Source: an uncultured Acidobacteriota bacterium
Lineage (GTDB): Bacteria; Acidobacteriota; Thermoanaerobaculia; UBA5066
Direction of reading: 5' to 3'
NCBI GenBank assembly: GCA_963776915.1
Contig: CAVZPE010000013.1
Location: 82,951-146,950, forward strand
Length of the DNA stretch: 64,000 bases
In this document: positions 8,288-16,064 of the stretch, piece after piece
Numbering within the stretch: position 1 is the first letter of the stretch
Layout of the letters: each line of letters starts with the position of its first letter
Translations under genes and position numbers: made by a program
The notes under the pieces: model-generated
Seen by the model: the letters and a program-made list of their open reading frames with translations, nothing else
The model's database searches: none
What the model was told of the DNA's origin: nothing

Positions 8288-8364
8288 GGCGGCCCTCCCG
8301 GCGCGCGACGAGCGCGCTCGACCGGAACAACAGCAAGTCCCGCGCCAGGATTCCCGTCTCGTTC

Positions 8365-8393
8365 TTGACGCCCCACCCGCCTCCGCCTACACT
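8365..8393 (+). promoter_or_regulatory. sigma70-like promoter of tRNA-Thr copy 1
   Basis: TTGACG (8365-8370), a 17-nt spacer, then TACACT (8388-8393), 21 nt upstream of the mature tRNA 5' end. Confidence 0.5.
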
Positions 8394-8414
8394 CCCCGTC
8401 CCTTCGGAAAGCGA

Positions 8415-8490
8415 GCCGAAGTAGCTCAGTTGGTAGAGCAACTGATTCGTAATCAGTAGGTCCCCGGTTCAAGTCCGGGCTTCGGCTCCA
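8415..8490 (+). tRNA. tRNA-Thr (anticodon CGU), CCA-encoded
   Basis: Hand-folded cloverleaf: acceptor GCCGAAG/CTTCGGC, D arm GCTC..GAGC, anticodon arm ACTGA-TTCGTAA-TCAGT, T arm CCCGG-TTCAAGT-CCGGG, discriminator T, then CCA. Confidence 0.95.
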
Positions 8491-8666
8491 GTCTTTCTTG
8501 AGAAAACCCCCTCAATTCCCTACGTATAGGCGAAAGACAGCGCCGCAAGCGTTGAACCGCTGTGCGCCCCGGTTTCTCGCCGGTCGGGCAAGGAGCGGGC
8601 AAGGCAATGGCGAAGGCCAGGAAGCTCCTCGAAACCAATCACATCGAGCAGGCTCCGGCGAGCTGG

Positions 8667-8680
8667 CGAAGTAGCTCAGT
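8667..8680 (+). repeat. 14-nt fragment identical to the 5' part of tRNA-Thr (CGAAGTAGCTCAGT)
   Basis: Exact match to 8418-8431 and 15108-15121, located 177 nt downstream of tRNA copy 1 at the left edge of the insert. It may be a relic of a recombination junction or a chance match. Confidence 0.4.
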
Positions 8681-8789
8681 GCGCCCCTATCTCTAAGACG
8701 CTGCGTCCTCTTCCAGAACGTCCTCTTCCAGCCCCCGGCTCCCCGATCCCCGAAGTCGGGGTGCCCCGGGTCGCCCCGCCTCGCAAACG

Positions 8790-12597: not shown

Positions 12598-14835
12598 CTA
12601 CCGGCTGTCGCGGGCAGCCGTGGTCATCCAGATGTTTCCCTTCAGCTCGGTCGCGTCGGTCGCGACGAGCTGTCCGTCGCGGCTGAGACTGACGGAGCCC
12701 AAGGCGTTCCGGTCGCCGAGCGCGAGGGCCGGGATCAGCGGCTCCGACACAGCCGTCTCGAGGGTGATTCGGCGGAGGTGGAGGGTCGACGTCCCGTAGA
12801 GACCGGTCGCGAGGACCGCCGAGCCGTCGGGCTCGAATGCCATACCCTGTACTCCCGCCCCGCTTAGGACGGCACGCGGTTCGCCACCGGGTCGGGCATC
12901 GACGATCCAGACGTCCGTCCCATGCAGGTAGGCGATTTGCCGCGCGTCCGGAGACCAGGCCGGGAACGCGTCCGTACCGGCGCCCGTCGTTGCCGGCCAC
13001 GGGTCGCCGTCGGGCCGCCCGCCCTTCAGCGCCACCACCCACACGTTCAGATGGCCCGAGCGGTCCGAGACGAACGCGAGCCGCGACATGTCGGGCGCGT
13101 AGGACGGATGCAGGTTGTCCGCTCCGCTTCGAATCAGAGGAAACGCCGCGCCCGAGTCGAGAGGCACCGCCCAGATCTCGCGATGCCCTGATGGTATCGG
13201 CCTGAAGAAGGCGATCGTCCGTCCATCCGGCGAGAAGGCGGGCGTGGCCGCCTCGAAGGCCGTGAGCCGTCGTGGCGGCCCGACGACAAACCGCCCGTCG
13301 CGGACGTCCTGGATCCAGAGGTCCCACGGCCCGAGACGGTTCGACATCCAGACGACGGCGCTTCCGTCCGGGGCGAGTGCGGGGTGGACGTCGTCCTTGC
13401 TCGTGGCGATCCGGCTGATGGATCCCGTCTTGCGGTCGAGGAGGACGATGTCCACGTCGGACACGAAGCTCGCGAATACGAGACGGCGGCTGCCGTGCGA
13501 GAAAGACGGGTGTCTCGCGGTTCCGGTGCCCGAAATCACCTGCTCGGGCGTGCCGCCTCTCGCGGGGACACGCCAGATCGATTGGGCGCCGGAACGCCGG
13601 GACGAGAAGTAGACGTATTCGCCGTCGGGCGAGTAGACGGGCTCCGAGCCGTTGATCCCGTCGCGGGTGAGCCTTTCCGACTTTCCGCCGGCGGAAGGCA
13701 CGGCCCAGATATCCTGAAACGCGGCGTAACAAAGGCGCCTACCATCAGGGGACCAACCGGGGCTCATGTGCTCCCAAGGCCCGTCGTCGTCGCCGGTCAG
13801 GCGGACCGCTCTGGTCGGTTCGGCCATCGGCGCGACCCAGATTCGGTGCAGGCCACTCTCGGTCACACGAGAGAACGCAAGCGAGACTCCGTCCGGCGAG
13901 ACAGCAGGCGTGTCGGCGTTCTCCACGATCAGACTCGTGCTCCCGCCGAGGCGGGACACCTTTCGCACGCTTGACTCAGCGCCCTGTGTCGACACGAACG
14001 CGATCGTTCGTCCGTCCGGGAACCAGGTCGGGTTCCGGTTCTCGCCGCCGTTCGTCAGCCGAAGGGGCTCCCCTCCTTCCGTGTCCACGACCCAGATTTC
14101 CGCCTTCCCCGACGCGTTGGAGCTGTATGCGACGAGCGTCCCGTCCGGAGAGAGCGCCGGCTCGCCGTCCCATCCCGGCGAGCTCGTAATCTGTCGCGGC
14201 GGCCCCCAAGAACCTTCAAGCGACGTAGCGCGTGAGCGCACGGCCCGGCTCGCAAGAACCGCCGCTGCCGACGAGGGCGAGCGCGGCGACGAAGATCGCG
14301 GAGACGACGAGCGCCCTCCGCCGTGGTCGCGCCTCGGCGGGAGCGGACGCTGGCGTGGGCCCCGGAGGCGCGCGCAGGGCCGGTATCGCCGCCGACGACA
14401 GGCTCCGGAGCGAGAGCGCGAGGTCGTGCGCCGTGTCGTAACGGTCCTCCGGCCGTTTTTCGAGACAGCGGAGGACGATCCCGGCAAGTGCGGCGGGGAG
14501 GCCGAGAGTCTCGCACGTCGAGAGGGTCGGGCTCGGAACGGAGGATCGCCGAGAGGATGTCCGCCACGCGTCCCGCTGGAGAACGGACGCTTTCCCGGAG
14601 AGCATCTCGTAGAGGCGCAGCCCAGCGCGAAGATGTCCGTGCGGCCGTCGAGGCGCTGCCCACGAAGCTGCTCGGGCGCCATGTACGAGAGCGTTCCGAC
14701 GACCTCTCCATCCACCGAGATCGCGTCCGGCGAGGGGGACGTCTCGGATCACAACATCCGCGACGACCGTGCTCGACGAGCTTCACCAGCCCGAAGTCGA
14801 GAACTTTCACTCGGCCGTCGGTACGTGATGAAGAT
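12598..14835 (-). pseudogene. Ser/Thr protein kinase - TM - PD40/TolB-like beta-propeller gene, 5'-truncated and with a decayed kinase domain
   Basis: Only the kinase C-lobe is present, starting at ..IFIT.TDGRVKVLDFGL.. and followed by ..GTLSYMAPEQLRGQRLDGRTDIFALG.. and ..LRCLEKRPEDRY... It is spread over three frames with about 6 switches in about 600 nt. The TM segment (ALVVSAIFVAALALVG) and about 530 aa of SPDG-repeat propeller are in one intact frame. Confidence 0.75.
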
Positions 14836-15017
14836 CCTCTTGCCTTGCCGAGCACTCATCCCTAGCCGCTCAGCAGCCGCCACAACCGTCTGCCGCCCGG
14901 CCTTCACCTGCTCGAGCTCCACCAGCCGCGCCCTCTCCCTCAAGCTCAGCCCCACAATCCCCTCCATCCATGCCCCCTCTTCCAAGGGGACATTTCTATC
15001 GAGCTATCGGGGTGACA
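14830..15017 (-). mobile_element. IS remnant: terminal sequence plus N-terminal HTH of a transposase (IS481/ISNCY-like by resemblance)
   Basis: MEGIVGLSLRERARLVELEQVKAGRQTVVAAAERLGMSARQGKR.. (ATG at 14967) resembles transposase N-terminal HTH domains. It is preceded by a TGT-initiated end, TGTCACCCCGATAGCTCGATAGAAATGTCCCC (15017-14986). It breaks off where the kinase sequence begins, and no catalytic domain is present. Confidence 0.5.
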
Positions 15018-15054
15018 CTTTCATGGAGCTACGACACAGATTCCCGTCCCGTTC

Positions 15055-15083
15055 TTGACGCCCCACCCGCCTCCGCCTACACT
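15055..15083 (+). promoter_or_regulatory. sigma70-like promoter of tRNA-Thr copy 2
   Basis: Same TTGACG-17-TACACT arrangement as copy 1. Confidence 0.5.
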
Positions 15084-15104
15084 CCCCGTCCCTTCGGAAA
15101 GCGA

Positions 15105-15180
15105 GCCGAAGTAGCTCAGTTGGTAGAGCAACTGATTCGTAATCAGTAGGTCCCCGGTTCAAGTCCGGGCTTCGGCTCCA
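15105..15180 (+). tRNA. tRNA-Thr (anticodon CGU), second identical copy
   Basis: 76 nt, identical to 8415-8490. Confidence 0.95.
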
Positions 15181-16064
15181 GTCTTTTGTTCACCGAACCG
15201 GCGAAAGGTCCCCTCGTAGATCACGGGGCCACCCCGCGCCAGCTCACGGCCTGCCGGCGGGCGGTTGTACTCGGTGAGCGGCCCCGGCGGGTCCTTCTCG
15301 AACCCGACGCGGAGGAGCTCCTCCCTGAGCTCCGCCTCGGTCAGGAAGCACTGAGGTTCACCCGCGAACTGGGTGAACACGAACCGCTCGCCCGGGACGG
15401 GCCGGTCGTCGGGAGCAAGCGTGGCGCGGGAGAACGTGAAGACGAAGAGGCCGGCACCCGGCCGGGCGACGCGCGCCGCTTCGGCGATCGCGCGGCGGAG
15501 CTCGGCGTCCGACCGCGCGAGGTTCCAGATCCCGTGAGCGACGACGATGTCGACGCTCGCGTCGGGCAGCGGCAGTCGGTCCATGGTCGCGCGTGCGATC
15601 GCGACGCGTGCGGCGACACCCTCCGACGCGACCCGCCGGCGCGCCGCCGCGAGCATGGGCCAGGCGATGTCGGTCCCGATCACGGTGGCCCCTTCGGCCG
15701 CAACGGGTGCCGCGTTGCGGGCGGCTCCGCAGCCCACGTCGAGGACGCGCAGCCCCGGCCGGCGGGCAAGCCGGGCGCGGACGAAGGAAAGAAGAACCTG
15801 GTTGGCAGCTGCCGTCGAGAAACCCCGGACGACCCCGGCGTCTTCCCAGCGGCCCACCGCCGCGTCGGCGCCGCGAGGAGGGCGGGACGCGATGTCGGCG
15901 GGGAGCGTGGCTGCGCTGGTTTCCAAGAGCTCTCCCTCGTCCGGCCCGAACCGGGAGATCCCGGGGCCGACGCGACCATCATGCCGCGTCTTCAGGCGGA
16001 CGGGATGACGCCGGTCATACCCGCGCGACCATTTCCTCCCGATGCTGGGAACGGCGATAGACAT
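15159..16064 (-). CDS. class I SAM-dependent methyltransferase
   Basis: ..LRVLDVGCGAARNA.. (motif I) and ..VDIVVAHGIWNL... The start is uncertain (ATG at 16064 or 16109). The stop at 15159 lies 22 nt inside tRNA copy 2. Confidence 0.8.
   Translation of the reverse strand: MSIAVPSIGRKWSRGYDRRHPVRLKTRHDGRVGPGISRFGPDEGELLETSAATLPADIASRPPRGADAAVGRWEDAGVVRGFSTAAANQVLLSFVRARLARRPGLRVLDVGCGAARNAAPVAAEGATVIGTDIAWPMLAAARRRVASEGVAARVAIARATMDRLPLPDASVDIVVAHGIWNLARSDAELRRAIAEAARVARPGAGLFVFTFSRATLAPDDRPVPGERFVFTQFAGEPQCFLTEAELREELLRVGFEKDPPGPLTEYNRPPAGRELARGGPVIYEGTFRRFGEQKTGAEART

Follow-up and report, generated by a model that had tools for sequence, protein, structure and literature searches.

Mobile elements associated with tRNA genes have been described in several forms. 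Phage HP1 is an example in which the attachment (att) block spans whole tRNA genes. Islands with a P4-type integrase include PAGI-97A, which resides in a tRNA-Pro gene and is flanked by a 49-bp direct repeat (PMC8373256). Insertions with long target duplication (the Nobusato/Furuta/Kobayashi class) form a separate group, not defined by a tRNA target, wherein other mobile elements are absent by definition and restriction-modification genes are the typical content (PMC2853133). Here we describe a locus with features of each of these systems in a 64-kb stretch of contig CAVZPE010000013.1 from an uncultured Acidobacteriota bacterium (hereafter the window), in which an insert at positions 8497 to 15038 lies between two complete copies of a tRNA-Thr(CGU) gene and its promoter. 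We consider it moderately likely that this insert is the decayed remnant of an integrase-type island, locked in place by homologous recombination that was anchored on an insertion sequence (IS) and that supplied the second complete tRNA gene. The locus is a new instance of known processes and not a new kind of system.

ARAGORN identifies only two tRNA genes in the window, both of them tRNA-Thr(CGU) on the plus strand, at positions 8415 to 8490 and 15105 to 15180. A repeat search of the window places them within a 148-nt direct repeat of 99% identity (8349-8496 and 15039-15186), with a spacing of 6,690 nt. The copies differ at one base, which is T at 8359 and C at 15049. The A at position 15038, between the IS terminus at 15037 and the repeat, corresponds to G at 8348 and is readable as a second mismatch in a native-derived stretch of 149 nt. 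Upstream of the tRNA gene is a promoter-like site of the sigma-70 type (TTGACG-17-TACACT, 8365-8393), which is the sole match between 8200 and 8900 (shuffle mean 0.0) and whose hexamers are kept in all relatives aligned. An earlier note on this DNA, made from the letters alone, had reported the paired genes in repeats that differ at one base, their spacing and this promoter, and each of these reports holds. The cell would carry two expressed-looking tRNA-Thr(CGU) genes. Both repeat copies have a derived T at CCA+5 that is without counterpart in four relatives (L015, L001, L002 and L008; see below), which suggests that they come from the same lineage and fits an origin of both within it. Because the copies differ by only 1 in 148 nt, either the event was recent or the copies are being homogenised. 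A third partial copy of the tRNA 3′ half was not found in the window at up to three mismatches, where none is expected by chance.

For comparison, 16 contigs from relatives were collected, reached via homologues of the 104-aa protein encoded to the left of the tRNA gene and of the methyltransferase encoded to its right. Contigs L001 to L010, L015 and L016 came from exact-protein look-ups and L011 to L014 from a scan of a genome collection; the same look-up with the window's own 104-aa protein returned no record. All are metagenome-assembled genomes (MAGs) of uncultured Acidobacteriota, some labelled Thermoanaerobaculia. In every relative whose contig reaches the tRNA, a single tRNA-Thr(CGU) gene adjoins the 104-aa gene. 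Pattern counts find the tRNA 5′ half once in each of 15 loci (15/15) and an extra 3′ half in one locus only, and two full copies occur in 0 of the 15 relatives. The left flank is collinear with these relatives at 82 to 95% identity, and on the right side of the tRNA almost every one of them has different DNA. Because of this right-hand variation, the tRNA-Thr(CGU) gene is a recombination hotspot in this uncultured lineage.

The closest relative found, L015, is 95.3% identical to the window on the left and 92.2% on the right, and its gene order (methyltransferase, one promoter and tRNA, 104-aa gene) represents the exact empty site. Positions 1 to 1872 of L015 align to window 16960-15039 and positions 1727 to 9173 to window 8494-1045, such that the two alignments overlap solely in the 146 nt of promoter and tRNA. 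The window therefore equals the L015 empty site plus 6,690 nt, of which 6,542 are unique and 148 duplicated. The insert is thus absent from an intact site in one genome and present in the other, and it was acquired, as the earlier note had supposed. That note also described the insert as less GC-rich (guanine plus cytosine content), and the values agree: 0.656 for the 6,542 nt of 8497-15038, compared with 0.719 and 0.714 for the left and right flanks. Sliding windows give the same picture, with 0.60 to 0.72 (mostly 0.60 to 0.69) in the insert and 0.70 to 0.79 in the immediate flanks. GC also dips to 0.65-0.67 elsewhere in the window, so composition alone constitutes only moderate evidence.

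The left end of the insert points to an integrase. Copy 1 of the repeat has native DNA on its left, collinear upstream with L015, L001 and L002, and its right edge (8496|8497) is the junction of the tRNA gene with DNA resembling the integrase-proximal arm of an integrative element. This arm is recognised through L014, which carries a canonical island at the same tRNA gene. A 409-aa tyrosine integrase of the P4 type (Arm-DNA-bind_3, E = 9.1e-15; Phage_integrase, E = 3.7e-12) lies directly 3′ of the L014 tRNA, and the 3′ part of this tRNA recurs 5.9 kb away as a 49-nt repeat of 98% identity (3029-3077). Window positions 8498 to 8599 match the spacer between the L014 tRNA and integrase at 71% over 105 columns, with a score of 53, where shuffled sequences reached at most 27. 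A stretch of about 100 nt from this arm also lies 3′ of the tRNA in L008 (9709-9805; 70% identity to the window stretch), where neither an integrase nor a second tRNA fragment was found beside it; it resembles a scar left independently by an element of this family. In island-free relatives, no similarity to 8498-8599 exceeds that of shuffled sequences. The left end of the insert is thus best read as an integrase-proximal arm from which the integrase was deleted from about its start codon.

Two further observations concern this region. The sole mismatch in the 49-nt, attR-type repeat of L014 is at the middle anticodon base (CGT versus CTT), which is consistent with a crossover in the anticodon loop. 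In the window, positions 8667 to 8680 (plus strand) are a 14-nt exact match to the tRNA 5′ end (CGAAGTAGCTCAGT; blastn-short E = 0.028), about 170 nt downstream of copy 1 and near the expected integrase start. The GCGAGC located 3 nt upstream of this match also agrees with the leader. The match may be the scar of a further tRNA copy, or it may be due to chance.

The right end of the insert is the terminus of an IS. The 51-aa N-terminus of a transposase encoded at 14818-14970 retrieved seven metagenomic loci at 78 to 86% amino acid identity. One of these, L018, contains an intact IS of about 1.45 kb with a 434-aa transposase of the ISNCY family (NF033594, E = 1.8e-107, 360 bits versus a cutoff of 250), whereas the window stub, which keeps about 50 codons, matches the same model at E = 0.01 and 15 bits. 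All seven IS copies share sequence with the window from exactly GTGTCGTAGCTCC, which corresponds to window position 15037 on the reverse strand, and their flanks are unrelated. The blastn homology of all seven stops at 15037, and native homology (L015 and others) begins at 15038/15039. The left edge of copy 2 (15037|15038) is therefore flush with the IS terminus, and the right flank of copy 2 is native, collinear with L015 from 15039 rightwards. This coincidence explains why the promoter and the whole tRNA gene are duplicated.

Only the left end of this IS survives, and two inverted ends with a target-site duplication are accordingly not seen. The stub is joined to the interior of a kinase gene via a 3-nt microhomology (14832-14834), and blastn homology to the kinase of another contig, L024, begins at nucleotide 577 of that gene, which is window position 14834. 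This junction marks an illegitimate deletion, in which the kinase gene lost its 5′ end and the IS was reduced to a stub. An initial blastn-based end of the IS fragment at 14810 was replaced by about 14835 after joint alignment of the IS, the kinase gene and the window.

The mechanism of ISNCY-family elements is poorly known. In three of the metagenomic loci (L021, ~561-640; L022, ~2871-2950; L023, ~84-160), the ISNCY left end is preceded by a right end of the L018 type with a few bases between. This junction, which is clearest in L023, looks head-to-tail, as in a tandem copy or a circle junction, and hints at copy-out-paste-in transposition of the ISNCY element.

With both boundaries in hand, several statements of the earlier note can be revisited. 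The IS fragment that it placed at the right edge is real, with an ISNCY-family terminus shared by seven other copies. It had found no integrase readable, and none was detected by Pfam and NCBIfam scans of the insert ORFs (open reading frames), nor was a remnant detected by tblastn with the L014 integrase at E ≤ 10; a scan of viral contigs with that integrase was uninformative, as it returned only relatives of 27 to 32% identity. Its suggestion that this is an island of an integrase-less kind does not stand, since the left end is homologous to the arm of an island with an integrase, and this homology indicates that the window island once had an integrase and lost it. The note recognised that a whole gene was duplicated and overlooked that copy 2 begins where the IS ends. 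Of the mechanisms it listed, homologous recombination, whether Campbell-type or allelic, fits best.

The features of the locus, from left to right, are as follows.
7973-8287, minus strand: 104-aa conserved hypothetical gene, the native left neighbour of the tRNA (27 homologues, no Pfam domain).
8349-8496, plus strand: repeat copy 1, with promoter-like site (8365-8393), leader, tRNA-Thr(CGU) (8415-8490) and 6-nt trailer.
8497-8606, plus strand: non-coding stretch of about 110 nt, putative integrase-proximal arm of an integrative element, after which the integrase gene would have been deleted (homology to L014 and L008).
8790-9368, minus strand: 192-aa ORF without family match, C-terminal GYSF.
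9369-10491, no strand assigned: about 1.1 kb without convincing coding signal, GC 0.61 (frame plot; ORFs without Pfam match).
10492-10868, minus strand: membrane-protein gene in two frames, homologous to the gene 3′ of the radical SAM (S-adenosylmethionine) gene of contig L025 (tblastx).
10865-12410, minus strand: radical SAM/SPASM peptide-maturase-like gene with a frameshift near 12083 (partial Pfam and NCBIfam matches).
12298-12556, minus strand: small ORF of the 99-aa type in two frames, kept beside the radical SAM gene in L024 and L025.
12598-13959, minus strand: PD40 (TolB-like) beta-propeller gene (PD40, E = 1.8e-60).
14076-14834, minus strand: Ser/Thr kinase remnant in three frames, without its first ~192 codons (partial Pkinase match; tblastn with the L024 kinase).
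14835-15037, minus strand: left-end stub of an ISNCY-family IS (~200 nt), comprising the terminus and the first ~47 transposase codons.
15039-15186, plus strand: repeat copy 2, with promoter-like site (15055-15083), leader, tRNA-Thr(CGU) (15105-15180) and 6 nt.
15159-16259, minus strand: class I SAM-dependent methyltransferase, the native right neighbour (Pfam Methyltransf_25, E = 3.8e-19).

Most of the cargo between these boundaries has homologues elsewhere. Window positions 11138 to 14834 have 81% DNA identity to L024 and L025. Of these, L024 is 28 kb long with a GC content of 67.8% and comes from the sample that also yielded L001. The order of kinase, PD40, ~99-aa ORF and radical SAM/SPASM maturase genes is common to window 10492-14834, L024 8550-12914 and L025 1-3924, and a membrane-protein gene follows the maturase gene in the window and in L025. 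No tRNA was found near this cluster within the ~21 kb of L024 and the 3.9 kb of L025 examined, and no integrase-family domain was detected among the called genes of either contig. The GC content of the cargo, 0.68, is closer to that of the L024 source than to that of the host. By these comparisons the cargo is of foreign affinity, and the cluster in L024 and L025 is chromosomal. The kinase, PD40, 99-aa and maturase genes may constitute a small peptide-modification cassette.

Individual cargo genes are preserved to different extents. The PD40 gene aligns in a single frame to its L024 homologue (81% amino acid identity over 454 aa) and is the only long cargo gene with a full-length, one-frame alignment to a homologue. 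The radical SAM gene has its CxxxCxxC motif in one frame and the remainder in another, with 76% amino acid identity to the L024 homologue across the two frames and one inserted nucleotide (12083-12084) when compared with either L024 or L025. Its top NCBIfam match is the PapB ranthipeptide maturase, far under the cutoff of that model. The 192-aa ORF is possibly the C-terminal fragment of an outer-membrane beta-barrel protein.

From these features we infer an order of events and a route of recombination. The island would have entered the tRNA-Thr(CGU) gene by means of a P4-type tyrosine integrase that has since been lost. Because an integrase of this family would duplicate only 49 nt, the full second copy of the tRNA gene would derive from IS-anchored homologous recombination, and the 148-nt repeat does not appear to be an integrase att duplication. 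The repeat would instead represent native DNA that extends from the site of an IS insertion, 67 nt upstream of the tRNA, to the tRNA/arm junction, with the second complete, promoter-bearing tRNA gene made by RecA-type recombination anchored on the IS. A duplication delimited by homology in this manner should end at recognisable landmarks, and the observed limits are indeed the IS end (15037|15038) and the tRNA/arm junction (8496|8497).

Two routes could yield the observed structure, and the sequence does not tell them apart. In the first, of the Campbell type, a circle carrying the IS, the promoter and tRNA, and the proximal island would have undergone a single crossover within the 148 nt of an island-free locus. 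In the second, DNA imported from an island-free strain with an IS upstream of its tRNA gene would have recombined by two crossovers, one in an IS copy inside the resident island and the other in the right flank, whereby the distal island and its 49-nt attR would have been replaced. The precursor for this second route would have an ISNCY element 67 nt upstream of tRNA-Thr with the junction ...GCTACGACAC + A/G + GATTCCCGTCC, and the IS right end would abut ...CCCGCGCCAG. Either route removes attR, so the remnant would be left without integrase-mediated excision. The integrase, the kinase 5′ end and all but a stub of the IS would have been lost in later illegitimate deletions. Loss of the island would then be possible only via recombination between the 148-nt repeats, which would restore the empty site.

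Two simpler roles for the IS were considered and rejected. A target-site duplication of 148 nt by the IS itself is implausible for DDE transposases. If two IS copies had mediated unequal sister-chromatid exchange, an IS should now separate copy 1 from the 104-aa gene, and that stretch contains no IS.

Several points weigh against the history that we favor. Neither the donor that it calls for (an IS upstream of an island-free tRNA) nor the circle is present among the 35 loci, which had been fetched for other queries. Copy-out-paste-in transposition makes no cointegrates itself, such that a second IS copy or a second strain must be postulated. The arm similarity amounts to only ~70% over ~100 nt, and the L014 cargo is unrelated, with no similarity to the window insert beyond the arm; a short segment is therefore all that ties the insert to an integrase-type element. 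The contig was assembled from a metagenome, and its structure was judged from the contig alone. Frameshifts taken as decay may be assembly errors, and the native NnrS-family gene in the right flank is also split, which makes frameshifts weaker as evidence of decay anywhere in the contig; we have accordingly downgraded them as proof of pseudogenisation. The genes of the left flank are intact in single frames. The truncations (the missing integrase, the IS stub and the loss of the kinase 5′ end) are structural and independent of base-level accuracy.

The remnant shares some features with each described system and departs from each in others. As in P4-type tRNA islands such as PAGI-97A, the insert lies directly 3′ of a tRNA gene, has a lower GC content and is matched by an empty site in a relative, and its arm is homologous to that of L014, a member whose 49-nt repeat runs from the anticodon loop to the 3′ end. 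It differs in that there is no integrase, the 148-nt repeat comprises the tRNA plus 66 nt of promoter and leader and not the tRNA 3′ part, and the distal boundary is an IS terminus and not attR, whereas L014 fits the canonical pattern. Complete tRNA genes at both element ends are also a property of phages and plasmids whose att blocks span the whole tRNA (PMC2853133); however, those blocks belong to the attP used by an integrase, and here an IS delimits the block and the related element has one of 49 nt. The closest likeness in mechanism is to Campbell-type integration or IS-anchored replacement, as in translocatable units and mosaic islands, wherein the duplicated segment is the shared homology and an IS end is its limit. 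In our case the IS is ISNCY and not IS26, the portable homology is the tRNA gene and its promoter, and neither a circle nor a second copy of the IS was seen.

The class of insertions with long target duplication invites the same comparison. The repeat exceeds 30 bp, is single-copy in the empty site and flanks an insert of less than 20 kb, all of which are properties of that class (PMC2853133), and it is likewise far longer than transposon duplications. One could thus propose that the insert arose as such an insertion, as for restriction-modification genes in naturally competent bacteria, with the IS and the arm being incidental. We find this proposal very doubtful, since a mobile-element landmark marks each end of the repeat (the IS terminus at one, the junction with the integrase arm at the other) and the class is defined by the lack of other mobile elements. 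More improbable still is that the two tRNA-Thr genes form an ancient tandem with native DNA in between, in which gene conversion has kept the copies identical. Near identity that extends into the promoter would be in keeping with gene conversion, yet 15/15 relatives have one full copy, and the exact empty site of the closest one excludes an old tandem arrangement. The intervening DNA also has lower GC, foreign affinity and mobile-element remnants. The earlier note had named genes shared with relatives between two tRNA copies as the finding that would speak for such a pair, and no relative with two full copies was encountered.

An integrase might have produced the entire structure if the identity block of its attP spanned the whole tRNA and promoter, in which case the 148-nt copies would be attL and attR, with the integrase lost and the IS arriving later. 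The resemblance of the insert's left end to an integrase-proximal arm agrees with this, as do published cases of att identity extending over a complete tRNA gene (PMC2853133). Nonetheless, we judge it unlikely. In L014, which has the only related element seen, the block is 49 nt long and covers the tRNA 3′ part, and the left boundary of copy 2 is flush to within one base with an IS terminus and not with element DNA. By our estimate, the chance that an independent IS would land 1 to 2 nt from the boundary of a 6.5-kb insert is roughly 3 in 10,000. Moreover, the 66-nt promoter and leader part is 65/66 identical to the host's own, whereas the corresponding stretch of L014 and L008 is visibly more divergent: their promoter and tRNA (~145 to 160 nt by blastn, the larger share being invariant tRNA) are 92.5 to 93% identical, with the mismatches upstream of the tRNA. 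A similarly low probability attaches to an assembly artefact, in which the contig joins or duplicates sequence across a shared tRNA or IS of a mixed-strain metagenome and no genome is so arranged. The contig is metagenome-assembled and the relatives are MAGs, the tRNA is 100% identical among many co-occurring lineages, the short-read contigs of L009 and L010 end inside it, and a native gene of the contig shows indel-type differences. An artefact of this kind, however, would need two mis-joins at homologous positions. Both copies have the lineage-specific promoter (65/66 and 66/66 identical to L015) and are one single-nucleotide polymorphism apart, and the kinase/IS-stub and IS-end/promoter junctions are specific and non-repeated, so they must exist on real molecules. 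If the assembly is from long reads, as inferred from the names of sister contigs, 148 nt is also much shorter than a read. The IS-anchored recombination of a former integrase-type island thus remains the reading that we prefer.

The native right flank provided several additional observations. Homologues of the methyltransferase are about 225 aa long, so its true start is probably internal to the ORF as called. This ORF ends 22 nt inside the opposite-strand tRNA gene (15159-15180), and the same overlap is present in L015 (1731-1752). In L016, the methyltransferase homologue lies between a ScdA_N/hemerythrin-domain gene and a COX1-family (NorB-like) gene, in a hemerythrin-rich setting without a tRNA. 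The neighboring NnrS-family gene (16042-16959) is split over three to four frames compared with the intact 305-aa gene of L015, by single-nucleotide insertions at three sites (about 16288, 16703 and 16807) that lie outside homopolymers. It is either a real pseudogene or the product of assembly indel errors.

The block at 15187-19921, which contains the methyltransferase, NnrS and a SPOR-domain gene, is common to L015 at least to position 16960. It is missing in L001, L002 and L011, where a PQQ-repeat gene or ~640 nt lies between the tRNA and a thioredoxin-like block (window 19922). The block may itself have been acquired earlier at this hotspot; a search of the window for a third partial tRNA copy found no att remnant that would bound it. 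Farther to the right, 23222-32495 and 33875-34666 are without counterpart in the otherwise collinear L011 (its matches stop at 23221 and resume at 32496, and stop again at 33874 to resume at 34667) and represent indel polymorphisms.

If the history proposed above is correct, this case shows in detail how an island in a tRNA gene can be stripped of attR and integrase and become fixed, with a second complete tRNA gene and its promoter remaining at the site. Island finders that seek an integrase together with a partial tRNA repeat would miss or mis-bound such loci, and tRNA copy-number calls in MAGs could be affected by them. We also entertained the broader notion that a tRNA gene and promoter captured by an IS end act as portable homology, giving recurrent integrase-independent island spread and tRNA amplification in Acidobacteriota. 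This extension seems distinctly improbable; were it true, integrase-less island fragments would move between close strains, each adding a functional tRNA gene. At a more ordinary level, the locus documents a tRNA-Thr(CGU) hotspot in uncultured soil Acidobacteriota and would be an example of ordinary genome plasticity with an unusual look.

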